DNA of 48,639 nucleotides, taken from positions 1 through 48,639 of IMG/VR virus record IMGVR_UViG_2778261184_000002. One strand, 5' to 3'. Made by a program: the position numbers and the translations under genes. The number at the start of each line of letters is the position of its first letter. Position 1 is the stretch's first letter. The stretch comes from a virus. Its lineage: Duplodnaviria > Heunggongvirae > Uroviricota > Caudoviricetes. The notes below the pieces were generated by a model. It was not told where the DNA came from, made no database searches, and worked only from the letters and a program-made list of their open reading frames with translations. Of this stretch, positions 5,403 through 44,831 are shown one piece after another.

Positions 5403-5516
5403 ATAACTATGACATTGGCAATCATACGAAATCCCTGGGGGTTTGTCTCGTTATGTTGACCAGTGGTCCAATCCAATCAAAATGTACAATCAATGAATTT
5501 ATAACTCAACATAAAA

Positions 5517-5533
5517 TGTTAGAAAATTAATTC
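5517..5533 (+). promoter_or_regulatory. Operator-like 17-bp motif copy (TGTTAGAAAATTAATTC)
   Basis: One of at least 14 copies of consensus TGTTAGAAAATTAATTT. Confidence 0.45.
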
Positions 5534-6105: not shown

Positions 6106-6152
6106 GTTGGCTGCCTCTTACTTATCAGCGATTTTTTATGATTGATCATATT

Positions 6153-6182
6153 TGTTAGATATTCAAAATTGATTTTCTAACA
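6153..6182 (-). promoter_or_regulatory. 30-bp composite operator-like site (TGTTAGAAAATCAATT-N7-TCTAACA on minus strand)
   Basis: Full motif plus inverted TGTTAGA half-site at fixed 23-nt offset; upstream of ref-like gene. Confidence 0.5.
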
Positions 6183-6377
6183 CAAAACATTAATATCAGT
6201 CGCTGTTTACTGTTTGGGGGACATGATGCTTATAGCCTTAAGTGCGATCCACCAGCCACCTGTGAATGAGATCGGCCTGTTTTATGTGCTGTTTTTCGTC
6301 GCGTTGGCGCTACTTGAGCTTGGTATTGAGCTTTTTGCAGTGCTTATGTTTTGCGTCACGATGCTGGAGAAATTTTG

Positions 6378-9657: not shown

Positions 9658-9687
9658 TGTTAGATTGTTGATTTTAATTTTCTAACA
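9658..9687 (-). promoter_or_regulatory. 30-bp composite operator-like site (TGTTAGAAAATTAAAA-N7-TCTAACA on minus strand)
   Basis: Same architecture as 6153-6182; about 40 bp upstream of ORF 9730. Confidence 0.5.
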
Positions 9688-9729
9688 TATTATTTTACCG
9701 CTCGGAACAAAACAGAGTCGGTATGCATT

Positions 9730-16620: not shown

Positions 16621-16651
16621 AAATCCCCTCAATTCACAGAGGGGATTTTTG
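16621..16651. terminator. Rho-independent terminator
   Basis: ATCCCCTC-aattcaca-GAGGGGAT followed by T5. Confidence 0.7.
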
Positions 16652-16921
16652 TATATGTTGCATAGAGTTTTATGGAAAAGCGTTATTGTCGGCGCGATAC
16701 TGGCTATATCTGGGTGTGCAATGGTGCAATACAACGACGGTGAAAAGGTAAGCATACAGTCAGATGGTTGGTATGGCCTGGATAGCCTGCAAAAAACCGC
16801 AGATAAAGCCTGTCAGCAATATGGGAAGTCTAAAGCAGTATATCAGCATAGCGCGAACGCTAACCCTCATCTAGCGCCCGGTTCTGGTGTTCAGAATACC
16901 ATCTGGAAATGTGAGCCTTAA
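16649..16921 (+). CDS. Lipoprotein candidate
   Basis: Lipobox-like LAISGC after a hydrophobic N-terminus. Confidence 0.5.
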
Positions 16922-16923
16922 AT

Positions 16924-17175
16924 ATGAGCGACTGGAATATTGCAGCTAAAAGTCAGGAAGAACGGGATAAGGTTAACGTTGATCTGGCTGCCAGCGGTGT
17001 GGCGTACAAAGAGCGATTGAACATACCTGTCATAGCTGAACAGGTAGCCCGCGAGCAACCAGAGAATCTGCGCACCTATTTCATGGAACGGCTACGGCAC
17101 TACCGGCAGTTAAGCCTCCAGTTGCCAAAAGGGAGCGATCCGGTGTATCAGAACGAGGATGCACCAAAAAAATAA
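16924..17175 (+). CDS. Hypothetical protein
   Basis: 83-aa ORF. Confidence 0.4.
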
Positions 17176-17298: not shown

Positions 17299-17688
17299 AT
17301 GGGCTTCCCTTCTCCTGCGGCGGATTATGCAGAGAGCCGCATTTCTCTTGATCAGCAACTAATCAGACATCCTTCCGCGACCTACTTCATGCGGGCGGCA
17401 GACAGCCATCACCGTGAGGGAATATTGCAAGGTGCTTTGCTGGTGGTTGATTCCTCACTTACTCCGGTTGATGGTTCACTGCTTATATGCGCTATGGAGG
17501 GTGAATATCGCATAAAGAGATACAGGAAGTATCCGCGCCAGCACCTGGAGGATTTAAGCACCGGGAAGAAAGAGGCGTTACCAGTAGATGACGATGGATG
17601 CACGGGCAGTAATGCTGTGTTTGGTGTGATCACTCATGTCATTAATGATGCCCGAAGTGGGGAGTTTGATTATAGACCTGTGATTTAA
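17299..17688 (+). CDS. humD: HumD (UmuD'-like translesion-synthesis accessory protein)
   Basis: 129 aa; GFPSPAADY...HPSATYF...collinear with the UmuD' region; lacks the LexA-like cleavage N-terminus, as P1 HumD. Confidence 0.8.
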   Translation: MGFPSPAADYAESRISLDQQLIRHPSATYFMRAADSHHREGILQGALLVVDSSLTPVDGSLLICAMEGEYRIKRYRKYPRQHLEDLSTGKKEALPVDDDGCTGSNAVFGVITHVINDARSGEFDYRPVI

Positions 17689-17698
17689 GGCGCATAAA

Positions 17699-17728
17699 GA
17701 AGCCCGCCAGACCTGGCGGGCTTTTTGT
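17699..17728 (+). terminator. Rho-independent terminator after humD
   Basis: AGCCCGCCAG-ac-CTGGCGGGCT followed by TTTTT. Confidence 0.7.
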
Positions 17729-17733
17729 TGATA

Positions 17734-18828
17734 TCATTCAATGATTTTTTCGGCTGTCAGCCAGCTAATTTCGTGCCTGTCTTTCGGCGGTTTTAGCATG
17801 TGAGCATATTCAGCGACATGCTCCCACGGAATTGTTTTTGCCCACTCAACGATAGCATTGTGATCTGCAGTGAAGAGTGGAATAGTGTGCGATTTCAACC
17901 ATTCTAATGTCGTGACGCCATGTTTTTTGGCGTGGTGCTGCGCATGATGCCGGGCTATCACTCGTAATGGCATTGTCCATTCACTACCATCAGGCATCGA
18001 AAAGCGCATTGTCTTCGGCATATCTGATTCAAGAACAGCCTCCCTAATACCAGGGAACTCACCAAGAATCATACGACGATAGTCATCACTATTTCGCCCG
18101 CCATACCTTTCGGCAAAATGATCAAGATATTCTTGGGTAATAAATGGTGAATCCTCCGCACTCAGCTTAATGGCTTTATATACACCACTCGGATTATCTT
18201 CAGCTAAAGCACGTCCATGATGTGAATCATAAAAAAAGCCTATTTCCTCTGGTGACGGAATTGAAGTGAGCAATATGCGTGAATCACCACTAGTCATGCT
18301 TGCCCACACAATGCTGTATGCCCGATCGCTGATATGTGCGGAATCCACAATAATGAATAAAAGATGGTCGGCGTAGTGACCTGCAATGCTATCTTCATAG
18401 TTAAGGCGGTAGTTACAAAAGCACATTCCCCAAAATTCATTGAACATCAGACCGCTATCACCGACCTTAAAATACTCAATGATAAAAGGTTGTTTTTTCA
18501 GCAATGCCTCCCAACATTGCCACACACATGCAACAATTCCTCTTTTGCAAACATTTGATTTTGGATAAACAATTACTGTCCGGGAATCAGGATACATAAT
18601 CGTATAAAGGGTACTAATAACAGCAAGCACTTGCGGTCGTCCGATCCCATACGGAGTGGTGACAGTAGCTTTTGCATTATTGGGCTGTATAGCTTCAACA
18701 ATTTGTTGTTGCTGGTGGCTTAAATCAATATCAAACAATTCTTTTGCTGCCAGTACCCAATTGTCTTTATATTTCTCCACCAGCGACAGCCAGCGCGGAT
18801 CTTTATAAATATTGCTCTTAGTCGCCAT
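17734..18828 (-). CDS. Terminase-large-subunit ATPase paralog with degenerate Walker A/B motifs (P1 PdcB-like by position)
   Basis: Collinear with N-terminal half of the PacB-like protein (DPRW...HQQQ-I), but Walker A is GIGRP instead of GTGKS and Walker B IVDSA instead of ILDEA; start at ATG 18828 (RBS AGGAAG). Confidence 0.55.
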   Translation of the reverse strand: MATKSNIYKDPRWLSLVEKYKDNWVLAAKELFDIDLSHQQQQIVEAIQPNNAKATVTTPYGIGRPQVLAVISTLYTIMYPDSRTVIVYPKSNVCKRGIVACVWQCWEALLKKQPFIIEYFKVGDSGLMFNEFWGMCFCNYRLNYEDSIAGHYADHLLFIIVDSAHISDRAYSIVWASMTSGDSRILLTSIPSPEEIGFFYDSHHGRALAEDNPSGVYKAIKLSAEDSPFITQEYLDHFAERYGGRNSDDYRRMILGEFPGIREAVLESDMPKTMRFSMPDGSEWTMPLRVIARHHAQHHAKKHGVTTLEWLKSHTIPLFTADHNAIVEWAKTIPWEHVAEYAHMLKPPKDRHEISWLTAEKIIE

Positions 18829-19585
18829 CTGCCACTTCCTTAACTTCTTCTTTGGCCTGTTCTGCAATCGCCGCACGGCATTTCGCCCTGGCTGTAGCGA
18901 TTGCTTCAGCTCGCACATCGTCTGGAATCGTTGACGTGATATACATATCCAGTTCTTCGGCACGGAATACTGTTTGGTCCAGATATTCGCGTAGCATCCA
19001 GGTAAATTCGAAATCACACGCGATAATCTCTGCGCTACCTTCTGCACCATTTGGGAAATGAATAAATGCCTGTTTAGCCAAACCGATAACACGACATGCG
19101 GTTGCCAAAACAGCGACAACCAGGTTTACATTTTCACACGCTACGGGCTGATTAACGCCGGAGATTACTCCATTTAACTGTCGGTTATATGGAAGGTAGT
19201 TTGAGATGCGTTCTACGCGCCATGTGCCAGTCAGGCTGCCATTTTTAAATATAATTGGTGTAACGGATAGCCCAAGCTCGCGTATAAGTCGTTGCGCTAT
19301 AGCAGGATCATTAAACAGGTCTAATGCTACACATTCGAAAGACTGCGCAAGGGCAAACAGTTCTTCCAGAGAGTAGTCTTTGCCCCTGGCGGTGATGTAA
19401 CGACGAACGCCGCTGTCTGCATCACTCCATATAGCTACGCCATGCTCTTCATTCAGCTCTTCATTAAAGCCGAGATACGTCATGATAGTGCGTTCAATCG
19501 TGTCAAACGGCAGTGACATGTCGGCGTTAACAGCCACCAGCAGGCCATTACGCAAGCGGTATTGAATTGTTTTAGTGCTTTCCAT
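18818..19585 (-). CDS. Hypothetical protein
   Basis: 255-aa ORF; stop overlaps downstream start. Confidence 0.45.
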   Translation of the reverse strand: MESTKTIQYRLRNGLLVAVNADMSLPFDTIERTIMTYLGFNEELNEEHGVAIWSDADSGVRRYITARGKDYSLEELFALAQSFECVALDLFNDPAIAQRLIRELGLSVTPIIFKNGSLTGTWRVERISNYLPYNRQLNGVISGVNQPVACENVNLVVAVLATACRVIGLAKQAFIHFPNGAEGSAEIIACDFEFTWMLREYLDQTVFRAEELDMYITSTIPDDVRAEAIATARAKCRAAIAEQAKEEVKEVADGD

Positions 19586-19591
19586 GTCAAA

Positions 19592-20254
19592 TCACTCCAC
19601 AACAAACCAGTCACAGGCCAGCAGGTCGCCAACTGAAGGCACCCACGGAACAACTACACCTTGTGCATTTTTTAAGGCGAAATAAGCACCATACGGAACG
19701 AGGTCGCCGGGGAAATATCCCTTAATGGCTTCCATTCGTGCCGGGTACTGTCCTTCAGGAACCAGCCAGCAGAATTGGTCTTCGCCGTTCCACCCGCGTC
19801 GAGCAACTTTCTTGCCATCCTTCATCCACATCAGCGCGTCAGAAAAGTCGGCTGCTTCAAGGTCGATTTCTTCTTGTAGAGTAGCGATACCGCCAGCAGA
19901 AATAGTTACGTCCCTGGCTGTAATGAATGTCACCCCATTGTGACCTTCAATGCTGAGCGATACCCCATTTTCGGAGGCGTCGTTAACCCGGCTATAGCAT
20001 TTTTCAAATGCTTTCTCTGGCACATAGACCAGATAACCATTTTCAGCAGTGACGAGATATCCTCCTATTTGCGGTCGGAACTTTTCCAAGAACACACCAT
20101 CAACACGAAGCGTCATTCCTTTTGGCTCCACGACTTCGATGCTGCCAAAAATGGGCGCATAAGCTTTGCCGACAATAACAATATCTTTGATTTTCGATGC
20201 CCGAATGATGCTGTGGCATTTGTATTTGGGGAACACCTGAAAAGTGCTGGCCAT
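19592..20254 (-). CDS. Two-domain protein: unknown N-terminal domain fused to C-terminal DUF2829-like domain
   Basis: C-terminal KDGKKVARRGWNGEDQFCWL...DLLACDWFVVE. Confidence 0.5.
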   Translation of the reverse strand: MASTFQVFPKYKCHSIIRASKIKDIVIVGKAYAPIFGSIEVVEPKGMTLRVDGVFLEKFRPQIGGYLVTAENGYLVYVPEKAFEKCYSRVNDASENGVSLSIEGHNGVTFITARDVTISAGGIATLQEEIDLEAADFSDALMWMKDGKKVARRGWNGEDQFCWLVPEGQYPARMEAIKGYFPGDLVPYGAYFALKNAQGVVVPWVPSVGDLLACDWFVVE

Positions 20255-20268
20255 AATCCTTCCTCTAC

Positions 20269-20763
20269 TTAAAACTTTGCGTACTGAAGCGGTGTACGCT
20301 TGATTTCAACGCGGCCTTCCGATGTGCTACCAAAGCCACCAGCACCACGCTCCGTTTCGTTGAGTTCCTCAACCTCGACTAGTGAGACTTGTTCAACACG
20401 CTCAAAAATTCCTTGCATGACAGCCATTCCATGCTTGAGACAAACGCCTTCCCCGCCTGGATCAGTAATCAGTTTTGCCATGATTTCGCCGCGATAATCG
20501 GAGTCGATAATTCCTACGCAGTTAGCCAGGCGAGTATGTTTTTTGCAGCCCAATCCTGATCGCGGATAGAGTTTCAGACACCAGCCGGGCGGGATCTCCA
20601 TAGCCAGTCCGGTATACACCCACCAGCTTGAGGAAATTGCACCATTGCTATCGACGCATGGTTTTATTTCAACAGCCTCAAAATCCATCGCCGCCGATCC
20701 GGAGGTGGCATAAGCTGGAAGTTTTGCTGCCGGATGTAGGCGTTTCACTTTTACGTAAATCAT
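20269..20763 (-). CDS. dut: dUTP diphosphatase (trimeric dUTPase)
   Basis: Motifs PRSGLG, GIIDSDYRGE and RGAGGFGSTS in canonical order. Confidence 0.85.
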   Translation of the reverse strand: MIYVKVKRLHPAAKLPAYATSGSAAMDFEAVEIKPCVDSNGAISSSWWVYTGLAMEIPPGWCLKLYPRSGLGCKKHTRLANCVGIIDSDYRGEIMAKLITDPGGEGVCLKHGMAVMQGIFERVEQVSLVEVEELNETERGAGGFGSTSEGRVEIKRTPLQYAKF

Positions 20764-21236
20764 TGTTTTTTAGCTCTCTGCGTGAAGGTGTAAACCCGAC
20801 GTTTGATATGTGGAACGGTAGGAACAGGAAGACAGGAACTTTCAATAACTCCTTGCTCCTCCAGCGATCGCACCGCCCGCAAGAACTGCGACGTGTCGCC
20901 GCCAAACTGGCGGGCATAGGTGCTGCCGTTATGAAGTATTTGAGCTATTACCCGAGCTTTTGTCTGGCTGTCACGATATGCGAATAGCCGCACGGCCTCT
21001 TCTGGCGCAATCGCTAACTGATAGCCTTTCCCGGCACGGTGTCGAATGAATCCATGCGCCAGTAGGTTTTTGAGTTCGTTACGAGTGCGAACAGATCCGT
21101 AATCCAGGAAGTGTGGATTGATAACGACTGGCTTAAACCATTCCGTAGGTGCTTTAGCTAATAGAGCTAACAGCTTCCCGGACAATTCTGGATAGGAAGA
21201 CGGGTAACAATTCAGAGATGGGTAATAAGTTTTCAC
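20760..21236 (-). CDS. Hypothetical protein
   Basis: 158-aa ORF, overlapping neighbours. Confidence 0.45.
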   Translation of the reverse strand: MKTYYPSLNCYPSSYPELSGKLLALLAKAPTEWFKPVVINPHFLDYGSVRTRNELKNLLAHGFIRHRAGKGYQLAIAPEEAVRLFAYRDSQTKARVIAQILHNGSTYARQFGGDTSQFLRAVRSLEEQGVIESSCLPVPTVPHIKRRVYTFTQRAKKQ

Positions 21237-21577
21237 CGACGCCCCCTTGCCGGATATCGACCTGCATTAGTATCCGGTGCAATAAAGCCGGTAGTGGGGC
21301 GAGTGAAAGCGAGATTAATCTTCTCGACCATAGTGCGATAATTTTCCTGATAGTGGGCCAGGAGTTTTTCGGCGGCAATGATGGTTACTTTCCGGACGTA
21401 GCTTTCTGCTTCCTCCAGATTTCGCCAGTTTTTTTCGAGGGTAAACACAGGGACGGCCTCAAGCCCGGTCATGATGCCGAACACAACGACAGCATGACTA
21501 TTCTTAACACCAGCGGCGAAGGTTACGGTGTAACCATCTACCTTGAAGCGTCTTGATTCCGTGATTTGACTCTGCAA
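21233..21577 (-). CDS. Hypothetical protein
   Basis: 114-aa ORF; first gene of an operon starting below an operator-like motif. Confidence 0.45.
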   Translation of the reverse strand: MQSQITESRRFKVDGYTVTFAAGVKNSHAVVVFGIMTGLEAVPVFTLEKNWRNLEEAESYVRKVTIIAAEKLLAHYQENYRTMVEKINLAFTRPTTGFIAPDTNAGRYPARGRR

Positions 21578-21635
21578 AGCACCCTCCTAAATAGGCGAGG
21601 GTACTTTACAGCAAAGGCGTTAATCTAAAAAGATG

Positions 21636-21652
21636 TGTTAGAAATTTAATTT
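21636..21652 (+). promoter_or_regulatory. Operator-like motif copy (TGTTAGAAATTTAATTT)
   Basis: Between the recombinase gene stop and the start of the 21577 operon. Confidence 0.45.
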
Positions 21653-22679
21653 ACGAATCCATCAGGCGGCTATTAGCCCCCACAGACACGCCGCCACGGC
21701 GAAGATACCGCATAAGTGTTTCCGGTTTCTTCCAGGTTCCTTCCTGCATGATCTCCACCATAGACACCTGCTTTTCAGCCATATCAATAGCGGCCCCGAC
21801 GCGTGCACTATGCCCGGTCCACGTCCGGTATCTTCCTTTGTTTGGCGTAGCATCTCTTTTATTCAGCAACACCCAGGCGTCGCTGAATATTTTCTCCATT
21901 GCAGGTGCAGTAAGGGGCGTTGTCGTGATCCTGGCCTTATTGCTACGGTGTATCGGCGGGAACAGCACTGCGTCAGGATGTTCGCGAAGCCCGGAAACAT
22001 CCAGCCAGTCATTCAGCACAGCGGTAGTGCAACGGGAAAGCACCTTATCAAGCCCGGCGGCGGTCGTTATTGTCTTCGTGTGTGAAATATGTAGCGTGAC
22101 AGTGTCACCTGTTTGGTCCAGATCTCCTACACGAATACGCGAGATTTCCGACATACGCATCAGCGTATTGTATGCAACAAAGAGAAAAGCCCGGTTGCGC
22201 AGATCCACCAGCCGTTCTGACCTGGACAACAGGACGTCGAGCAGTTTCAGATCGTCCCACCGCAGCGGTATAGCCTGGCCTGTTCGTTCGCCTTTTTCAG
22301 TTGCCGCTTCGCGCCGGATGCGCCGCATAGCCAGAGAAACACTTTTATCATCCGAAAGTGGCGGAAGGCCACAATGCGAAAGCAGCATGTTCAGCATGGC
22401 GTAGTGCTTATCAATGGTGGTCGAAGCCAGATCGGCATCATGCAGCTGAAGAAAATACTCGCGGGCCATCTCTGGTGAGATCGGGAACCAGGCGAGCTGG
22501 CGAGCGTGACACCATCTCGCCCAGGAGTGAAACACTAACCGGAGATCGCGCAAAGTATTCGGCGCGTAAGCCCCCTGGTCATTCATGAACCGCATAAAGT
22601 TTTCTGCGGCCTCCTGGTACTCTTTGCCAATGTTGCGCAGAAAACCACTGGAGCTGCCAGAGATAATTAATTCACTCAT
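21651..22679 (-). CDS. dre: Cre-family tyrosine site-specific recombinase (Dre-like)
   Basis: 342 aa; collinear with P1 Cre over the whole length (SWA-WC...WFP, SLAMRRIRRE, AYNTLMRMSEI-RIRV-D, GHSARVGAA-DMA, C-terminal catalytic Tyr region); adjacent rox-type site. Confidence 0.85.
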   Translation of the reverse strand: MSELIISGSSSGFLRNIGKEYQEAAENFMRFMNDQGAYAPNTLRDLRLVFHSWARWCHARQLAWFPISPEMAREYFLQLHDADLASTTIDKHYAMLNMLLSHCGLPPLSDDKSVSLAMRRIRREAATEKGERTGQAIPLRWDDLKLLDVLLSRSERLVDLRNRAFLFVAYNTLMRMSEISRIRVGDLDQTGDTVTLHISHTKTITTAAGLDKVLSRCTTAVLNDWLDVSGLREHPDAVLFPPIHRSNKARITTTPLTAPAMEKIFSDAWVLLNKRDATPNKGRYRTWTGHSARVGAAIDMAEKQVSMVEIMQEGTWKKPETLMRYLRRGGVSVGANSRLMDS

Positions 22680-22831
22680 GAAACTATTTAACCTCTATAT
22701 ACAGATGACGCTACGCGAAAAATATAAAAATGACAGGGTAGCTATAAGTTAATTTTCAAGATTCAAACCTTTGATTCGAGGCACGTATTTTCAGTGATGT
22801 CAACACTGATCATCCACCCATGATTATAGCC

Positions 22832-22863
22832 TAACTTTAAATAATGCCAATTATCTAAAGTTA
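22832..22863. other. lox/rox-type recombination site TAACTTTAAATAAT-GCCA-ATTATCTAAAGTTA
   Basis: 14-bp inverted arms around 4-bp spacer, 150 bp upstream of the recombinase gene; arms differ at one position. Confidence 0.75.
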
Positions 22864-22870
22864 GAAACTT
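22859..22870 (+). promoter_or_regulatory. Operator-like motif copy (AGTTAGAAACTT) overlapping the right arm of the rox-type site
   Basis: Partial match to consensus. Confidence 0.3.
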
Positions 22871-23036: not shown

Positions 23037-23053
23037 TGTTAGAAAACTAAATC
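23037..23053 (+). promoter_or_regulatory. Operator-like motif copy (TGTTAGAAAACTAAATC)
   Basis: 10 bp upstream of the RBS of ORF 23065. Confidence 0.45.
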
Positions 23054-23064
23054 GAGTAGGAATA

Positions 23065-24102
23065 ATGAGTAAGAAGTCGATCGAGAAAGAGTACAAACGG
23101 TTCCTGCAAACCGCTGAACGGTGGAAAGAGCTGGTGGTCGCAAACTCTGTTTTCCATGATACCAGTTATGCCGGCGAGGAATTCCGCCACGTTGCACTAA
23201 CACATGATCAGAATGTGCTAGAAGAAGCTGAAAAGTGCCTCACAGAATGGAAAGCCTTTGTTGACTTGTGCCGTAACGCTGACGGCAAAGCGTCCAACAT
23301 TGTTGAGTCTGTATATTCTCCGATCCCATTCATTATTGAGGACACAAATCAAAGCACGCATATTGTTGTGCAAAGCGCGACCACCACCCGCTCATTTACG
23401 CGCGAAAATCTGCTCAAAAAATATGATGCAATTATAAAGAAAAGCCTGAAAAACAAGATATTTTCGCAGATTGTTGGTGCACTTGAAGAAGAGCGCCGTT
23501 TTTTCGCATCAGAACCTGAAGGGGAAGTTTACCGGGCGCGCAAAGATGGATACACAGATGTAGTGCTTACAACAAACATTGAAGGCAGCAATGCTCTGTC
23601 ACGATTCAGGGTAGGCGCACACGGAGCCTTAGTGTTCGCAAAACTTCCGAACACCACAGTGCCCGTTGTTAATAATGTCGGCGAACGTCGCAGCATTACT
23701 ATTTATTCTGGGGTTGAGTCGATCCCTTGCGGCCTGCTTGGTGACTTTAGTCTCTATCGCGTTCGCGATCTGGAGAAACACCAACCAAGCTATGTTGCGA
23801 AGTCATACATCTTGCGAAACATCGACATCCGCAATGAGAGCTTAAAGAACAAATCAGCCAAAATGCTTGAGGAAGCCGATCCGGCTATTCGCCATATCAT
23901 TGAGCGTAAAATACAGACAGCACGCGAAGCGATGGCGAGACTGAATAAAATGGATCTGGAGTTGTTAGACGTAATGATGACATCCGGAGATGACCTGACA
24001 GGCATAAAACTGACAGACGCGCGGAAAAGATACGGTAAAACCATAGAAGAACGTTACGGGTTCACTTTCTCCCAAACACAGCACGCCGCTAAACTCTGGT
24101 AA
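23065..24102 (+). CDS. Hypothetical protein; positional candidate for the primary immunity repressor (C1 analog)
   Basis: 345 aa; lies between pacB-like gene and the recombination site as c1 does in P1; three operator-like motifs within 210 bp upstream. No sequence motif supports the function. Confidence 0.35.
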   Translation: MSKKSIEKEYKRFLQTAERWKELVVANSVFHDTSYAGEEFRHVALTHDQNVLEEAEKCLTEWKAFVDLCRNADGKASNIVESVYSPIPFIIEDTNQSTHIVVQSATTTRSFTRENLLKKYDAIIKKSLKNKIFSQIVGALEEERRFFASEPEGEVYRARKDGYTDVVLTTNIEGSNALSRFRVGAHGALVFAKLPNTTVPVVNNVGERRSITIYSGVESIPCGLLGDFSLYRVRDLEKHQPSYVAKSYILRNIDIRNESLKNKSAKMLEEADPAIRHIIERKIQTAREAMARLNKMDLELLDVMMTSGDDLTGIKLTDARKRYGKTIEERYGFTFSQTQHAAKLW

Positions 24103-24173: not shown

Positions 24174-25682
24174 TCAAATATCCAGATCTGGCATTTCTAC
24201 ATCTGCAAGAACCTGATCGCGGAAGGTAGCCATTTCAGCGCCGATATCTTCATTAGCAGGAACATAGTCCACCAGCATTGTAAAGCAGTAGGTATCCCAT
24301 CGGTCAGGTGATTTGATGTTCAGCTTTTGCCGCATGTGCTCCTTGCGCATCATCGCCATCTTCCCTTCTTCATTAAGTAAAAAGGGGATTTTTGACGCTT
24401 GCTCTGCCGTTTTAGGGTCGCTGTCTATTCGCATACGACCTGACTTTATGGCATCACGAGCCATAATATTTGCGTAGGCACGCTGGTTAACAAAACGCTC
24501 CTTGTCTTTATTCGAAAACATGGGTTTCCCCCACCGAATCCGTACCGGGTTAGCCCCACGGCGCACCAGCTGCGCACAGGTATCTGAACCAAAACCGTCT
24601 GCGTCAACCGCGATTGTAATATTCGGGTATTTATCCGGCGTGCATTCGTTGTATATAAAGTCAGCAAAAGCCAGCGGGTCCATAGTCCCTGGCATTTCCA
24701 TTACCTTAAAGTTAACAACACGCCGCTTTTCCCGGTGACCAGACACTTTACAGATATTAAGAACTGACTTGTCTCGCCCGTTACCAACGTCAGCAGTAGC
24801 CACCCATCCCCAGTTTTTCTCCAACAACACCTTGCGCCGCGCAGCGCGATCGCATTCATCACGACCAAGCAAATAGCCGTTAATCTCCCGAGGAAACTGA
24901 CCAAGAACCTTGACCATGTACTCAATAGAATCGCGCCCGCCATATTCCAGGAGTTTCTGCCTGATGAATTGTGGTGTGACGAACGGTGATTCTTCTGAGT
25001 TAAGAACAATTGCTGTCCAGATCCCTTTCGGGTTGTCTGGGGTTTTAGCTTGAGAATGGTGCGAATCGTAGAAATAACCACTTGGCCTTGTTGGCTGGGA
25101 TAGCATCAACATTCGGTTATCTTCTTCAGTCAGAGCGCCAGTCATTACGCCGATCGCTTTATCAGATATACCTGATGCTTCATCCAGAATTAGAAGCAAA
25201 TGTGCCGCGTGCTCCCCCGCCAGAGCTTCTTCGTTACCGAGTCGATAGCCTTTGCAGAGAACTTCCCAGATCCCCTTTCGAGAGCGTTCATAAAACATGG
25301 TGTCAGACAGGACAAAATAGGTCTGTAACCACCCATGACGCTTAACGGCATTCGCCCAATACTGTTTAACGTATTTGAATACACCTGTCTTAACCTGACC
25401 TATTTTGTTAGCAACAATGATGACACGGGCATCGGGGAACAGAATCAAATAAATCAGCAACAACATAGCCGTTAGCGACGATTTCCCTGTACCGTGACCA
25501 GAGGTAACAGTGGTTCTGCTCCCTTTTTGCTGTACGGACTGGATAATCTCCTGCTGCTGGTGGGAGGGAAACATCCCGAATATATCAACAACAGCCTGGG
25601 TAAAGTTGTAGCGGTATTTGATTACCATATCGCGCCAGCGTGGATCGCTGGTGACGCATTTAATCTTGCGCCCACCAGCCAT
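24174..25682 (-). CDS. pacB: Terminase large subunit (PacB-like)
   Basis: 502 aa; Walker A GHGTGKSS, Walker B LLILDEASGI; follows pacA-like gene with overlapping stop/start. Confidence 0.8.
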   Translation of the reverse strand: MAGGRKIKCVTSDPRWRDMVIKYRYNFTQAVVDIFGMFPSHQQQEIIQSVQQKGSRTTVTSGHGTGKSSLTAMLLLIYLILFPDARVIIVANKIGQVKTGVFKYVKQYWANAVKRHGWLQTYFVLSDTMFYERSRKGIWEVLCKGYRLGNEEALAGEHAAHLLLILDEASGISDKAIGVMTGALTEEDNRMLMLSQPTRPSGYFYDSHHSQAKTPDNPKGIWTAIVLNSEESPFVTPQFIRQKLLEYGGRDSIEYMVKVLGQFPREINGYLLGRDECDRAARRKVLLEKNWGWVATADVGNGRDKSVLNICKVSGHREKRRVVNFKVMEMPGTMDPLAFADFIYNECTPDKYPNITIAVDADGFGSDTCAQLVRRGANPVRIRWGKPMFSNKDKERFVNQRAYANIMARDAIKSGRMRIDSDPKTAEQASKIPFLLNEEGKMAMMRKEHMRQKLNIKSPDRWDTYCFTMLVDYVPANEDIGAEMATFRDQVLADVEMPDLDI

Positions 25683-27046
25683 TAGTCATCCTCCGGCGGT
25701 TCTATCGCAATATCATCATCTCCGGCGTCATACCCTGCATCTGATGCATCATAATCACCGTAAATTTCAGCCGTTGCCGAAGGGTCAATGTCCAACTCTT
25801 CATCGTTGGCCTCGAATTCCCCAGCCTTACGCTCGCCATTGTGGTCGTAATCTCCGCACCCCAGATCTTCAACAATGGTTGCCACATCCGCCCGGCGCTC
25901 TGCCAGCCATTGCGGATGGTTAGCCTGAAGCGATGCAAACTCCTTCGCTTCTTTGTCCAGCTGTTCATCATCAACATCATTGATGTCAGAAACTGGAGGT
26001 TCGAGAAGAGTGATAGCTTTCGCCGCGCGCGCCGCGAGGATAGCCGGGACACTGACACCCTGACGCTCGATGTATTCAGCAACACCGATATCGTCCAGCT
26101 CCTCGCGCTCACGCATACGTATAGCGGCGGCGATAACTCTGGCTGCGCGTGCGTCAGCGCCAATGCGATATTCAATCTCTTTGCCACGCTGTTCGGCCTG
26201 TAGGCGTGCTAATTCGAGTTTTTCTCTGGCCTCGGCCTCTCTGAATGCTTGCTGGCGAGCACCCTGACGAAGTTTTTCATCACCCTGTCGCAGCTTTTGT
26301 TCGGACTGATATATCGCTGCCAACCTACTGATAAAATCGTTCATGTAGTAGGCCGCGTCACTGATTAGACCGAGAAGTCGCTGCCCAGGGTGCATTCCTT
26401 CTGGCTGTTCATCACCCAGGGCGTCTATCTCCGCCTGTAGGCGTTCGGCCTCCTGATCAACAATGCTTTGGTACTGAAGTGCGCGTTCTTGCGCCATTTG
26501 AATTGCTAACCGCAGGTGCTCTTCTGCGCCGTTCTTCATCATGTCGCGAGCCACACTCGTAGTGGGCAACGTGGCACGCTGCACAGCACCGCCAGGGATC
26601 ATTGCTGAAGATCCCTCGATTTTTGAGGCGCATTTATCTTCGGTGGGGATCATTTTCGCCATTTTTTCGCGCAATGATCTCCTGACAGATTCTTTTATCT
26701 CATTGTTATTATTTGCATTATTTTCATGATCCGAAGTTTTCTTTCTCGGCATACTTCGGAAAGAACCTGTGCCCTGCGAATTGTCAATTTCTGTAAATTT
26801 TGTTGTTTCTGTACCTTCTTCTGGTCTTTTTTTTGCTCTTCCTGCCCGTTTTTTTTGAGGTGATTTGGTGCTTTTTTTTGTAGTCTTCACCTGCGACCGC
26901 ACCTCATTTTTTTTCATATTGAGATGCTTTCTGGCGGTATTGAAGCTAAGGTCGTGTTGCTCGCAGTATTCCTTTACGGTGATCCCTTTTTCTTCACGCA
27001 ACGCTATAAATTTGGCGCGGTGCTCTTCCCAATTAACCAGACTCAT
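25682..27046 (-). CDS. pacA: Terminase small/DNA-recognition subunit (PacA-like)
   Basis: 454 aa; N-terminal HTH-like segment (ITVKEYCEQHDLSFNTARKHLN), basic linker, acidic C-terminus; immediately upstream of terminase large subunit. Confidence 0.6.
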   Translation of the reverse strand: MSLVNWEEHRAKFIALREEKGITVKEYCEQHDLSFNTARKHLNMKKNEVRSQVKTTKKSTKSPQKKRAGRAKKRPEEGTETTKFTEIDNSQGTGSFRSMPRKKTSDHENNANNNNEIKESVRRSLREKMAKMIPTEDKCASKIEGSSAMIPGGAVQRATLPTTSVARDMMKNGAEEHLRLAIQMAQERALQYQSIVDQEAERLQAEIDALGDEQPEGMHPGQRLLGLISDAAYYMNDFISRLAAIYQSEQKLRQGDEKLRQGARQQAFREAEAREKLELARLQAEQRGKEIEYRIGADARAARVIAAAIRMREREELDDIGVAEYIERQGVSVPAILAARAAKAITLLEPPVSDINDVDDEQLDKEAKEFASLQANHPQWLAERRADVATIVEDLGCGDYDHNGERKAGEFEANDEELDIDPSATAEIYGDYDASDAGYDAGDDDIAIEPPEDD

Positions 27047-31256: not shown

Positions 31257-31273
31257 TGTAATTTTCTAACACT
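31257..31273 (-). promoter_or_regulatory. Operator-like motif copy (TGTTAGAAAATTACA, minus strand)
   Basis: Consensus match in ORF-free region. Confidence 0.4.
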
Positions 31274-31421
31274 TTAATTTGTTATTTGCTGGTGGGCGAA
31301 CAACAACCAATAAGTGACTATCAAGCCCAGCAAGCGAAATGTGGCAACGCTCCACCAGCAAGGAAAATTCTAAGTTAAGTTACTCTCACAATCAATATGT
31401 TCGTTTGGTGAAATTAGATTT

Positions 31422-31438
31422 CTAACACATTATTTCCC
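31422..31438 (-). promoter_or_regulatory. Operator-like motif copy (TGTTAGAAATCTAAT, minus strand), internally palindromic
   Basis: Overlaps stop codon of ORF 31430..32650. Confidence 0.4.
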
Positions 31439-32661: not shown

Positions 32662-32678
32662 AATTAGTTTTCTAACAT
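32662..32678 (-). promoter_or_regulatory. Operator-like motif copy (TGTTAGAAAACTAATTT, minus strand)
   Basis: 12-25 bp upstream of the 406-aa ORF start. Confidence 0.45.
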
Positions 32679-32752
32679 ATTTTATTAGTATGAGAACAAG
32701 ATCGAAAGATGTGATAAACAAAAAACCCGCTAATCGGCGGGTTTTTGAGCGG

Positions 32753-33442: not shown

Positions 33443-33754
33443 CTATAGAAAGACGGGATATCCCTTCTTTTGGCCCTCTGCCACCATTTTTATTGCCGTC
33501 CTTATGCCTCGCAGACCGCCGTTTGGAGTGGCGTGTGTATGCTCATACACATAGCGCATATTGCGATACAACCAATCCAGGACGCGTACCTGCTCGTAAT
33601 GCTCATGGTTCCTTTTGATTAGATCTGGGTTTTTCTCCAGTTCTCTGAGAGCTGCGGCATGTGGGGATGTTTCAGAATATTCACTGCGACGCCTTCTTTT
33701 TCTCGCTATTTTTCTAACACACCCATTGATAGTAAATAAGCGAAATAATAACAA
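33443..33754 (-). CDS. Uncertain ORF
   Basis: Track ORF whose first codons overlap an operator-like motif (33704-33719); true start unclear. Confidence 0.2.
   Translation of the reverse strand: MLLFRLFTINGCVRKIARKRRRRSEYSETSPHAAALRELEKNPDLIKRNHEHYEQVRVLDWLYRNMRYVYEHTHATPNGGLRGIRTAIKMVAEGQKKGYPVFL
33704..33719 (-). promoter_or_regulatory. Operator-like motif copy, degenerate (TGTTAGAAAAATAGCG, minus strand)
   Basis: Left half conserved. Confidence 0.3.
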
Positions 33755-34627: not shown

Positions 34628-37600
34628 TTAGGCCGCATCGGCGATTATTTTACGCAGTTCATCTACCGAGTAACGCGTAGATACCATCCACGCCGGACGG
34701 TCAAAGTTCACATCAGCAACCGGGTTTGCTTCAAAATTCCAGAAACGCCCGCCAATCTTCTTAATCGCGTCTTTGGCGTTCCGTATTGTCGAGGAACCTG
34801 GCTGGTCGGCAATGAGATAAACCGCGCCAACGTCTTCGCTGACGCTCCACCAGCGCCCGCGAACACGCGCCTTAGCGCGAATCGGCTTATCATTAACCAC
34901 AATGATATAGTCATCATTCGCCGCTTCATCAGCTCTGGCTTCAGCCACTGCCGCCTGCTCTTCTCTTTTGCTTTCAGCCTGCTCAAGCCTTTCCGCGATC
35001 TCTGATTCAGTGGCCCCGCCGTTTTTCAGCGATACATAGTCCTGCCACGTTGCCGATTTGAGCGCATCCGGCAACTCATTCACATAGTCGCCGTCTTTCA
35101 ACTCACGGGCGCGACGGGTGGCCATTTCTACCAGGCGATTAACAGAAACAGCATCAGCAAAATCGTCCTTACTAATGTGTTTTTCATCAAATGCATTGAT
35201 GACAGCCCCCACCTTAATCCACTGCGCTGCTGGCGAATCCAGAGGATTATCGGCCTGAACAATGGCTAATTTCGCTCCATCGACACCATTATTAGCCAGC
35301 TGCTCCAATGCCGACCAGCCATCGGCATCGCTGAGTGATTTATATTGCTCAAACAATGCATCGCGCCAGGCCACCAGCGCAGCTCGTGTTTTCTCAATTT
35401 TCGCCGTAATTTTCGCGGCCTTCACCTGATTAAACATCCGTTCAATGTCATCAGTGTTGCTAAAGGCTTTCATCCTGCCCTGGAATAAACGGTATGCCAC
35501 CACGGTCTTCCAGAAAGATTCCAGCCCTTCTCCGGACGGTTTACGGAACAGGCTAAGAATATCTTCAGAAGTAACTTTATTAAGTGAGCGACCGGACAAA
35601 CCACGCCCTGCCATCCAGTTTTCAAACTCCTGGGAAACATCATCCATCGTGGCCTGTGACCCCCATGCCTGCATTCCCTGGATGTAATCATATCCATACA
35701 ATGCCTGGAGGAATCCCTCGCCGTCCACGACATTCAGCGGGTTATCACTGGCTTGTATTTTTGCCACTTCACGCTTCAGCGCCTCATCGTTGCCATCAGG
35801 GTAAATCCACCGCTCAGGCGCTATATCCGATGCTCGCCCGATTTTTTGACCTATTACGCCATCATAAGCCGATGACAGTGCAATCTGACCATCATCGGTG
35901 CGATAAGCCCAGTATTTAATAGCTGAACCACCGCCCCATACTCTACCAGGCTTCCCGGCAGTGACATTCATTACCCCATTGCGAATAGCATCATAGAACT
36001 GATCGCGCGTAAGTGTTGTTGATAGCTGGTGGCATTGAACACCACGTGCAGCTGTTTCACGCGATTCTGCAACTCCCTCTTCAAAGGTTACCGATTCAAT
36101 TATCAGGTTAAAGGGCAAAAATAATGCCGTCCCCGGAGAACGAGAGTAACGACTAGCCACATCCAGCCAGGATATGCGGCACGTACACCCGCCCCTTTCC
36201 GCATCAATGGCTGTAACACGAACAATTGCTGTCGTATTGTGATTCTCATCGATGATCGCGCGATAATGGCTGCCCTTGTGCAACAAGATATTTTTCTCAG
36301 TGCGTACATACTCCTGTGGGTTCTGCAATACATCGGCATCAAGCTCCAGAACCCCGGCTTTAATCGCACGTTCCAGATCACCACGAGAACGTTTCATAAC
36401 GGTGTCAGCGTCTTTAGCTCTGGTGATCGCAAAGCGTAGCTCCCGCACACGTTTTCTGTAGTCTCGCAACTGTTCCAGAACATATTTCTGCCCGTTCCTG
36501 TTCGTCCCCGCTTTAATCAGGTCGTCAAGATTGCGCTGGTAATGCTCTACCTGCTCCATCGCGCTTTTCAGTTCTGTCTCCATCATGCCGATATCTTTCC
36601 CGGCAGCATTCGCCGCTTTCAGGTAGTTATCGAGAGCATTATTGGCTTCGCGTAGGGCTTTCAGTTTCAGACGTTCTTCACGCTCTTGCGCCTGACGAGT
36701 CATGATTGCACGGCGTTCTTCCGGATTTGCCGCCAGCATAATGGCGCGTTCATCTGCGTCATCCGCATCACCATTGGCGATCTCTGACATGTCGGAGGTC
36801 ATCACCATATTGATCCAGTCCTTCTTACGTTTCAGCGTATCCAGACGGAAGTCATCAAATGTGCCTTTGCCACAATAGTAGTGAACATTGACCTTTTCTT
36901 GTGGTGAGCCTACCCGAGCGCCGCGCCCATTACGTTGGTCGATACTGGCAGGAGTCCAGGGTAGTGTCAGATGGTGGATATCGGTTGTCCCGATGTGCAA
37001 GTTAATACCTACTTCAGCCTTCTTGTTACAGATTATGATGCGCGTGCGACCTTCGTTATAGTCGGCGGCAATACCTTCCATGCCCTCAAGGCCAGCATCA
37101 TTTTTAGCTGAGAGATAATCCTCATATTGGGCAAGTTTGCTGTAGTAGGTTTCCCATGCACCTTCTTTGTATTCACCGTTTTTATTTGGCGTAGGTTCAG
37201 TCGGCTTATTCACCTTCTTCAGCTTGACGCCGCCAGCCTGGCTAACTGTCGTCGCATTGATAATGCCTATCTCCTGCTCCGGCATTTGCAGTGCACTGGC
37301 AATAATACGGCGCAGCTTCTGGTGCTGGGCTTTTTCATCAATGAAGACGATTTGTTTACCGTTCTTCAGACCTTCACGAAGGTTTTCGATCAGCGCGGCA
37401 TACTTCGGCGGGATGGGGTGTGATACCTGCTGCATATCAATACCGGCAGCCGCAATGGCCTTCAGTATTTCAGCTTCCAGTTCAATGCCAGCACGTATTT
37501 CAACATGCGACGGATGTTCGCTAAAGGTGGTCTTCACTACCTTGCTGGTACGCGTACTTACCAGCCCACCAGCGCCATCTTCTTCGGCCTCGTCTGCATC

Positions 37601-43594: not shown

Positions 43595-43624
43595 ATTTAG
43601 AAACGGCAAATTAATTTTCTAACA
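43595..43624 (-). promoter_or_regulatory. 30-bp composite operator-like site (TGTTAGAAAATTAATT-N7-TCTAAAT on minus strand)
   Basis: Upstream of the c4-like/icd/ant module, analogous to P1 Op51. Confidence 0.5.
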
Positions 43625-43678
43625 CAAAATGTCGAGCGAGCATTTTCCGATCATTGGGATGTTTTGTAGACGCACAGG

Positions 43679-44641: not shown

Positions 44642-44814
44642 CAGATAGTTCCGTGCAAAAATCTATCTACCGTATAAATCTATGCCAGTGGATTTATACA
44701 CCAAAAAGCCGCTTCTCAGCGGCTTTTGCTTTTTTTGGCAGTCGCTACCGGAGCAGTGACCGCGATCCTACTCGATCACATCGGACAGGATCAACAGTGT
44801 ATATAAATACACTA

Positions 44815-44831
44815 TGTTAGAAATTTAATTT
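44815..44831 (+). promoter_or_regulatory. Operator-like motif copy (TGTTAGAAATTTAATTT) preceded by near-palindrome AGTGTATATAAATACACT
   Basis: Intergenic between pro-like and the 320-aa gene. Confidence 0.4.

Follow-up and report, generated by a model that had tools for sequence, protein, structure and literature searches.

A nuclease-less pseudo-ATPase related to the PacB large terminase, encoded by an accessory gene of P1/D6-type phage-plasmids

The stretch of DNA analysed here (the window; 48,639 nucleotides (nt), IMG/VR record IMGVR_UViG_2778261184_000002) belongs to the D6 type within the P1 family of phage-plasmids and is 92-97% identical to phage D6 wherever the two can be aligned. On its minus strand lies an open reading frame (ORF) of 364 amino acids (aa) at 17734..18828 (-), with its ATG at 18828 and its stop at 17734, which is, on the evidence of sequence and structural modelling, a pseudoenzyme that goes back to the ATPase half of a large terminase of the PacB type (hereafter the paralog). 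Six features make up this description: a pseudo-ATPase domain, a new C-terminal domain, maintenance by selection, accessory status, an exchangeable N-terminal domain, and a place in an operon with a Tad2-family gene. We hold the six jointly with high confidence. We propose, tentatively, that the paralog functions in conflict as a mimic of the terminase ATPase domain, acting by binding alone.

A terminase ATPase domain without catalytic motifs

To establish the limits of the gene, we compared it with the 91.6-kb E. coli plasmid NZ_CP069886, which carries a 100%-identical copy; the PGAP call on that plasmid agreed with ours (ATG 18828, 364 aa). A Shine-Dalgarno sequence, AAGGAAG, lies 6 nt 5' of the paralog ATG, and the paralog start overlaps the stop of the preceding isaA-like gene by 11 nt; judged from this arrangement, the start is translationally coupled to the isaA-like gene. 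The closest relative of the paralog in the element is the resident large terminase PacB (502 aa; 24174..25682 (-)), whose Walker A (GTGKS) and Walker B (LDEAS) motifs are intact. BLASTP aligned paralog aa 7-259 with this PacB at 37% identity (E 9e-61), and identity to P1 PacB was 32%. The two genes are about 5.3 kb apart and belong to separate operons, and the paralog does not adjoin pacA (25682-27046 (-)), so that it lacks the pairing with a small terminase.

A sequence search of the PDB with the paralog returned nothing significant, and its identity as a large terminase subunit (TerL) came from the fold search only. The AlphaFold2 model had a predicted local distance difference test (pLDDT) score above 90 over aa 10-260, and the best PDB matches found with Foldseek were the ATPase domains of T4 gp17, Sf6 gp2 and P74-26 TerL (E 3e-8 to 1e-7); the PhiV-1 terminase from the Avs3 complex was also among the fold matches. 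Model and fold search together assign to the N-domain of the paralog (aa 1-260; 18049..18828 (-)) the additional-strand catalytic-glutamate (ASCE) ATPase fold of the TerL N-domain. The first-pass annotation of this DNA, made from its letters alone, had aligned the ORF with the ATPase half of PacB, and the alignment was borne out by both the BLASTP match and the fold. The profile of PHROG 5902, a family whose function is not named, matched the paralog over its full length (E 2.3e-163; aa 4-363 on profile positions 2-358 of 359), and Pfam, NCBIfam and PADLOC gave no match for the paralog or for the IsaA-like, orf116-like and orf117-like proteins encoded with it. The paralog is homologous to PacB across the whole ATPase domain and shares its fold; unlike PacB, it has no nuclease, is dispensable and patchy in distribution, and evolves faster, with allele exchange.

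The catalytic motifs of PacB are degenerate throughout this domain. Walker A, SGHGTGKS in PacB, reads TPYGIGRP in the paralog (Lys to Arg, Ser to Pro); Walker B, LILDEAS in PacB, reads IIVDSAH (Mg-binding Asp to Val, catalytic Glu to Asp); and the C-motif, SQPTR in PacB, reads SIPSPE with loss of the Thr and the Arg, so that none of the three has its canonical form. The Glu of the PacB LAGEH motif is lost as well. It had been claimed at first pass that the Walker A Lys and the Walker B acidic residues were replaced, and this is correct for the Lys (now Arg) and the Asp (now Val), whereas the change from Glu to Asp is only conservative. Across ten paralog lineages, the Walker A Lys position is occupied by R/Q/H/E/R/M/T/C/T/I, the Walker B Asp position by V/T/M/I/V/T/L/P/P/P, and the catalytic Glu position by D/E/D/N/N/D/H/N/Q/D. 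Intact residues in a shifted register, which the first-pass annotation had named as one point that would overturn its claim, were looked for in alignments of these ten lineages, and no register restoring the Walker motifs was found.

We then asked how motif loss is distributed among related proteins. A library-wide HMMER search returned 763 relatives of the paralog, and the motif census was taken on an alignment of the best 150 of these together with the retrieved loci. Both Walker motifs were kept in 101 of the 112 proteins of at least 420 aa, and 7 more had an EE Walker B. Seventeen nuclease-less proteins shorter than 420 aa in which the motif region was present had lost both Walker motifs; 9 further short proteins, whose motifs are intact, seem to be pieces of true terminases. 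The positions lost in the paralogs though conserved in true terminases are exactly Walker A, the Glu and His of LAGEH, Walker B, and the Gln, Thr and Arg of the C-motif. What is kept from PacB comprises the HQQ motif, the P-loop glycines, LAG, the SxP backbone of the C-motif, and two lid motifs, YFYDSHH and YGGR. Over paralogs and terminases together, some 20 non-catalytic positions show little or no variation, and the segment best kept relative to PacB is the non-catalytic C-motif and lid region (43% identity).

These patterns bear on the possibility that the paralog is an active ATPase with non-canonical motifs, in which ATP would be bound or hydrolysed through the Arg (or an out-of-register Lys) and the Asp at the Glu position. 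The window allele does carry an Arg in place of the Lys and an Asp in place of the Glu, the alleles reading GIGQKT and GIGHKS have Lys-Thr or Lys-Ser one residue later, and the HQQ motif and P-loop glycines remain. However, the Lys, Asp and Glu positions vary across the clade, so that no constraint is apparent at any of them, and the C-motif Thr and the adjacent Arg are lost. We consider retained catalysis very unlikely.

Similarity to PacB ended at paralog aa 259, and in the alignment the remaining 105 aa were unrelated to PacB residues 265-502. The nuclease half had been reported absent at first pass; the RNase-H-like nuclease domain is indeed missing, but its place is not empty, being taken by an unrelated domain of about 100 aa (C-domain, aa ~265-364; 17737..18036 (-)). 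AlphaFold2 confidence for the C-domain was low (pLDDT 30-70), no Pfam family covers it, and a word search of a large database with the C-domain alone returned two fragments only. The domain was found as stand-alone proteins of about 100 aa (P0067, P0086, P0101, P0120 and P0150), as gene_35 of Cronobacter phage JK004 (L006 4001-4297), two genes after a DnaB-type (DnaB/Ban) helicase, and as the C-terminal part of ORF36 (511 aa; L007 1768-3303) in Xanthomonas phage CP2, where it is fused to a DUF1351 protein and lies beside Erf, exonuclease and SSB genes. Judged from these sequences, the nuclease domain has given way to a small domain that moves among phages on its own. Members of the C-domain family, P0113 among them, share the recurring start '...TMPDGS.W.VP...IA..HA...' and occur singly or fused, often near replication or recombination genes.

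Nuclease-less paralogs that lack the C-domain also exist. They consist of the ATPase domain only (252-266 aa), apart from one of 444 aa with a different tail, and the short forms P0011, P0014, P0015 and P0017 match PHROG 5902 at profile positions 3-260. A short (263-264 aa) Walker-dead paralog stands behind a gene for a Ref-family recombination-enhancement nuclease, with a 4-nt overlap, on the Citrobacter freundii plasmid NZ_CP114569 (L010 5333-6789); another of the same length stands behind a radical-SAM protein gene on a metagenomic contig (L022 4027-5795); and a further short form lies near ParM-type partition genes. Three IMG/VR scans with P0014, P0011 and P0017 returned nothing, and PLSDB held no close copies of P0014 or P0011.

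The company kept by the C-domain and the short forms raises the alternative that the paralog assists replication or recombination as an adaptor that binds DNA or protein without catalysis. It would act together with functions of the IsaA, Ref, SSB or Ban type, for instance when replication or recombination intermediates or concatemers are processed. In its favour are the position of the isaA-paralog pair directly after ssb in P1-type elements, the overlap of a short-form paralog with a Ref-family nuclease gene, and the occurrence of the C-domain alone after a DnaB-type helicase (JK004) and fused beside Erf, exonuclease and SSB genes (CP2). It is weakened by the weak fold matches of IsaA, by upstream partners that are not conserved, by the lack of an identified DNA-binding motif in the paralog, and by N-domain hypervariability between near-identical plasmids, which would be unusual for a housekeeping replication factor. 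We regard such a role as unlikely; were the paralog a mere DNA-metabolism adaptor, it would lengthen the list of phage pseudoenzymes only modestly.

Selection, allele exchange and distribution

To assess whether the paralog is maintained, we compared the window copy with that of pE2863-2. The two differ by 25.5 synonymous and 8.5 non-synonymous differences, a ratio of non-synonymous to synonymous rates (dN/dS) of 0.08, and the paralog is under purifying selection. A full-length ORF of 364-366 aa is kept in three allele groups that are 48-65% identical; at the protein level, the other two groups are 64-66% and 51% identical to the window copy. These data speak directly to the view, already disfavoured, that the paralog is a decaying duplicate, a functionless, pseudogenised remnant of a terminase duplication. 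The loss of all catalytic motifs would fit that view, as would the dispensability and patchy distribution of the gene and a C-terminal frameshift in one copy (phage 813R1). Against it stand the dN/dS of 0.08 in close comparisons, the intact ORF in three allele groups and 163 plasmids, the roughly 20 near-invariant non-catalytic positions over paralogs and terminases, the translationally coupled start with its Shine-Dalgarno sequence, and the acquisition of a specific second domain. We give decay hardly any credence.

To locate the variation, we compared the operon of four plasmids stepwise along its length. The operon was 95-100% identical apart from two hypervariable blocks, the Tad2-like gene and the paralog N-domain. 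Nucleotide identity between plasmids fell to 43-65% in the paralog N-domain, and to 53-77% in the Tad2-like gene between plasmids about 99% identical on either side of it. isaA and the paralog C-domain, which flank the N-domain block, were 95-99% identical to those of pE16EC0256-4 (CP088573). Between CP088573 and AP018804, PacB was 100% and PacA 99% identical, whereas the paralog N-domains were 50% and the C-domains 98% identical; C-domains were likewise 96-98% identical between alleles whose N-domains are 50% identical. Every paralog allele was about equally far from any PacB (33-38% identity), and the alleles differed more among themselves than D6 PacB differs from P1 PacB (N-domains 61% identical). 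These comparisons indicate that the N-domain is an exchangeable cassette whose allele is independent of the resident PacA, PacB and IsaA.

Two candidate relationships were rejected on this basis. The paralog as cognate regulator of the element's own terminase was discarded, there being no co-variation with the resident PacB or PacA, and an obligate IsaA-paralog pair was discarded since the allele does not co-vary with IsaA.

To determine how widely the paralog occurs, we searched plasmids, complete genomes and reference phages. Among 746 PLSDB plasmids with a PacB-type match, 163 (~22%) also had a place covering at least 80% of the paralog. Of 5426 complete E. coli genomes, 36 had the window allele at full length, in every case on a plasmid of about 90 kb. 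P1, P7, SJ46 and D6 gave the PacB match only, and tblastn with E up to 10 detected no trace of the paralog in P1 or D6, where the junctions are clean. The match to D6 breaks off some 25 bp short of the isaA end and picks up again in a 34-bp stretch with the terminator, which forms the right-hand junction. In more distant D6-like plasmids (from Raoultella, from Enterobacter, and one assembled from a public sequencing run), the operon ends at isaA and its middle slots are filled otherwise, in Enterobacter by an N6/N4 DNA methyltransferase and a Tad2-like protein.

The P1 branch of the family revealed a second setting. In the IS1-free P1 relatives MH422554 and vB_EcoM-813R1, ssb is followed by isaA and then by an overlapping 364-aa paralog that is 51% identical to the window copy. 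When P1 (L005 3533-4528) was compared with MH422554 (L003 4995-6089), identity ended exactly at the end of isaA, and P1 continued with IS1 and the unrelated isaB. On this sequence comparison, the isaA-IS1-isaB region of P1 is an isaA-paralog module disrupted by IS1; P1 shares the IsaA homologue with the window, and the place of the paralog is taken in P1 by IS1 and isaB. The setting differs between the two types, the isaA-paralog pair of the window lying in a dre-proximal operon and isaA of P1-type elements lying directly after ssb. The isaA-IS1-isaB segment has been described as the variable region RD-2 of P1-like plasmids (PMC6906374), and P1 isaA and its neighbours were non-essential by CRISPR interference (PMC10695390). 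The copy in vB_EcoM-813R1 (L004 5987-6076) needs a C-terminal frameshift to align, which may be a sequencing error or decay. Two P1 proteins were examined as possible relatives and rejected: IsaB showed no similarity to the paralog, and the best BLASTP match of PdcB had 14 bits (E 5.5), its RefSeq name being HNH endonuclease.

P1 and D6 are infectious phages without the paralog, which is thus not needed for packaging, and from its distribution we conclude that the paralog is an accessory gene of P1/D6-type phage-plasmids. Three suggestions of the first-pass annotation did not hold up well against these results. Its idea that P1 pdcB is PacB-related fails on the PdcB comparison above; the gene is not the conserved P1-family feature that had been supposed, being absent from P1, P7, SJ46 and D6 and present in 163 of 746 PacB-bearing plasmids; and the proposed role as a packaging regulator is weakened both by phages that are infectious without the gene and by alleles that do not co-vary with PacA and PacB.

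A different link to packaging was also weighed, namely that the dead ATPase domain co-assembles with, or titrates, the PacA, the PacB ring or the portal of a rival P1-family phage and stalls its motor, or tunes the element's own packaging. In the T4 and phi29 motors, one inactive subunit can stall the ring ATPase, which favours such interference. The TerL C-terminal half, however, carries portal contacts in several phages, and the paralog is without it. The pattern of conservation is favourable: the catalytic sites have decayed, whereas the N-terminal helices and, at 43% identity, the non-catalytic C-motif and lid segment are best kept. Allelic hypervariability would fit an arms race with rival terminases. 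There is also a precedent for a prophage-encoded blocker in TERi/TerI (bioRxiv 10.1101/2025.02.27.640495). This accessory protein of temperate Listeria phages is aimed at the terminase of other phages and is relevant to the interference reading only; TerI is small and unrelated, with no homology to the paralog, has dedicated self-immunity partners and is expressed in the lysogen. By comparison, the operator-like site upstream of the paralog operon suggests repression in the lysogen, the very state in which exclusion is needed. In addition, the allele does not track the resident PacA and PacB, which argues against a regulator tuned to the terminase of the same element; packaging proceeds in P1 and D6 although they lack the paralog; and an identity of 33-38% to any PacB makes co-assembly uncertain. 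Interference with packaging is in our judgement unlikely, although it deserves consideration.

A binding-only mimic as the favoured function

We tentatively favour, while placing its likelihood below even, the reading that the paralog mimics the terminase ATPase domain and serves in conflict by engaging host factors that bind the large terminase; part of the remaining probability we leave to functions other than those considered here. The paralog would work by binding and not by catalysis, and it would be made when the repressor is lifted, on infection or induction, together with the counter-defence proteins of its operon. The variable N-domain would mimic the terminase ATPase domain and engage factors that normally bind that domain, the likeliest targets being host sensors or inhibitors aimed at the large terminase (Avs1-3/Upx-type sensors, TerI-like packaging blockers). 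Loss of the ATP site would let the paralog avoid being a trigger itself, and the constant C-domain would provide a fixed second contact. The operon company and the variability suggest a locus typical of counter-defence, with a Tad2-family gene here and a methyltransferase plus a Tad2-like gene in Enterobacter.

Published work provides the background to this proposal. The large-terminase ATPase domain is a direct ligand of Avs2, Avs3 and Upx, and the sensors also contact bound ATP and active-site residues (PMC13601566). In the same study, T4 vs.8, a paralog of the TerL ATPase domain only, was reported to fit the EcAvs2 pocket, and its authors suggested that it may be an anti-defence protein (PMC13601566). 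By its description there, vs.8 resembles the paralog in being a phage-encoded, stand-alone TerL ATPase domain without a nuclease, found in one phage lineage. The differences are that vs.8 keeps Walker A and B and reportedly activates EcAvs2, whereas the paralog has lost all catalytic motifs, and that vs.8 is of gp17-type origin, whereas the paralog is of PacB-type origin and has an extra C-terminal domain.

A narrower version of the mimic proposal is that the Walker-dead copy occupies or mis-assembles terminase-sensing receptors (Avs1-3, Upx) or inhibitors, so that the PacB made later would go undetected; exchange of N-domain alleles would then reflect an arms race with the sensors. We think this decoy version improbable. 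If true, the paralog would be the first decoy against Avs to arise from the very protein that is sensed, and it would hint at what T4 vs.8-like proteins do.

Several points weigh against a mimic aimed at terminase-binding host factors. The PADLOC-DB search found no model match for any of the six operon proteins at E ≤0.01, and the paralog carries no anti-defence annotation. Avs2 and Avs3 contact terminase-bound ATP and Walker residues, and a Walker-dead mimic may for this reason not bind them; moreover, sensor binding normally activates Avs rather than blocking it. In the alleles with GIGQKT and GIGHKS, in which the Lys is one residue out of register, residual nucleotide binding is possible. 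The upstream partner of the paralogs varies (IsaA, Ref nuclease, radical-SAM protein), and the other homes of the C-domain (DnaB/Ban; Erf, exonuclease and SSB) and the ssb-adjoining module fit a role in DNA metabolism equally well. The timing of expression, finally, is deduced from one operator-like motif only.

The interest of the paralog lies in the protein that it copies. Bacterial immune receptors (Avs1-3, Upx) rely on the large terminase as one of the main proteins for detecting tailed phages, and it is also a target of inhibitors encoded by prophages. Here, a conserved, selected, catalytically dead and fast-diversifying copy of its ATPase domain sits in a counter-defence-type operon of widespread E. 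coli phage-plasmids, which makes it a candidate for a new form of conflict between phage and host or between phages. A natural allele series exists, as do natural knock-outs (P1, D6). In databases the paralog is unannotated or, in some records, called 'terminase large subunit', a mis-annotation, since it cannot be one. Our literature search found no published description of the paralog, and paralogs consisting of a terminase ATPase without the nuclease are a barely explored kind.

The operon, its control and neighbouring landmarks

The minus strand from 21577 to 17734 contains six abutting or overlapping ORFs, in the order orf117-like, orf116-like, dUTPase, Tad2-family, IsaA-like and paralog, the paralog being last. 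The dUTPase, the DUF2829 fusion and the three unknowns noted at first pass were thus confirmed to lie with it in one tight co-directional string. The first gene, orf117-like (114 aa; 21233..21577 (-)), has a TTG start and a Shine-Dalgarno sequence, AGGAGG, at 21583-21588; it is the homologue of D6 orf117 and matched PHROG 1968, whose function is not named, and nothing beyond it. The orf116-like gene (158 aa; 20760..21236 (-)), the homologue of D6 orf116, falls in PHROG 6669, likewise without a named function, and gave no Pfam, PDB or PADLOC match. The dUTPase (164 aa; 20269..20763 (-)) was identified by PF00692 (E 1.2e-14; 54.6 bits versus a cut-off of 22) and by the equivalog NCBIfam NF001862 (121.4 bits versus a cut-off of 103).

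The Tad2-family (DUF2829) protein (220 aa; 19592..20254 (-)) matched Pfam PF11195, Tad2-like, over aa 136-219 (E 2.7e-22; 79.5 bits versus a cut-off of 25). Its domain (aa 132-220) also matched the solved structures of ModTad2 (9eib) and Tad2 (8v3e) at E ~1e-19, as well as AcrIIA7 and SPO1 gp34.65. Tad2 is described as a phage sponge for Thoeris signalling molecules (bioRxiv 10.1101/2023.05.01.538930); that DUF2829 now belongs to this bona fide anti-Thoeris family had escaped the first-pass annotation. The ORF at 19592-20254 shares its domain with the Tad2/AcrIIA7 (DUF2829) sponges (PF11195, solved Tad2 structures) and differs from them by an added N-terminal stretch of about 130 aa. This extra N-terminal domain belongs to PHROG 11049/872, and the D6 version of the protein is shorter (146 aa). 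The IsaA-like protein (255 aa; 18818..19585 (-)) is 48% identical to P1 IsaA; its AlphaFold2 model is confident (pLDDT 81.5), with weak fold matches only.

To examine how the string is controlled, we scanned the window for repeated operator-like sites. An operator-like 17-mer, TTAAATTTCTAACACAT, lies at 21633..21649 (-), within the 73 bp that separate the end of dre from orf117. Its core, TTTCTAACA, has 11 copies in the window versus 0.44 expected, and the 17-mer TTAAWTTTCTAACAYAT has 10 copies at up to 3 mismatches versus 0.25 expected. The P1 C1 operator consensus ATTGCTCTAATAAATTT had 0 matches in the window at up to 3 mismatches. The 17-mer copies probably form the operator set of the element's D6-type C1-like repressor (23065-24102 (+)), to which they are predicted to bind. 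The copies, mostly intergenic, are at 5514-5530, 6150-6185, 9674-9690, 21633-21649, 23037-23045, 31258-31274, 31414-31430, 32664-32680, 33711-33719, 43611-43627 and 44812-44828.

Directly downstream of the operator-like site is a weak sigma-70-like promoter candidate (21603..21631 (-); TTTTTA, 17 nt, TAAAGT), read by eye and below the scan threshold. An operator-flanked promoter had been proposed at first pass; one operator-like site is present, but no second site was found and the adjacent promoter is weak. The Dre-type tyrosine recombinase (21651..22679 (-); Pfam Phage_integrase; D6 homologue annotated dre) is encoded 73 bp upstream of the string on the same strand, and no terminator was seen in the gap between dre and orf117. 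The sole strong promoter-like site between 17000 and 23200 (22823-22850; TTGGCA, 16 nt, TATAAT) overlaps rox and points into dre. As the promoter next to the 17-mer is weak, read-through from the dre promoter is equally possible, and the string may be transcribed from its own repressor-controlled promoter, by dre read-through, or both. The rox-like inverted repeat at 22831-22864, TAACTTTAGATAAT-TGGC-ATTATTTAAAGTTA, has arms that are 93% complementary, with one mismatch.

At the other end of the string, a GC-rich hairpin at 17700..17723 (.) lies between the convergent humD and paralog genes. Its 10-bp stem (-19.3 kcal/mol, z -3.0) is followed by UUCUUU when read on the minus strand and by TTTTT when read on the plus strand, and the hairpin is a probable bidirectional terminator closing the operon. 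HumD is encoded at 17299-17688 (+). The window is without the phd-doc addiction module at 17689-17733, where humD directly abuts the shared terminator hairpin; in D6 (L001) and the closest plasmid relatives (L009, L011 and L013), phd-doc lies between humD and the paralog or isaA. Farther upstream on the plus strand, a 90-aa ORF at 16649-16921 (+), just before a hot (Pol III theta) homologue at 16924-17175, has a lipoprotein-like signal (…ILAISGC…) and no family match. Elsewhere in the window, a giant ORF of 2279 aa at 34628-41467 (-) contains N6-methylase, SNF2/ResIII helicase and Helicase_C domains and presumably encodes a DarB-type antirestriction protein.

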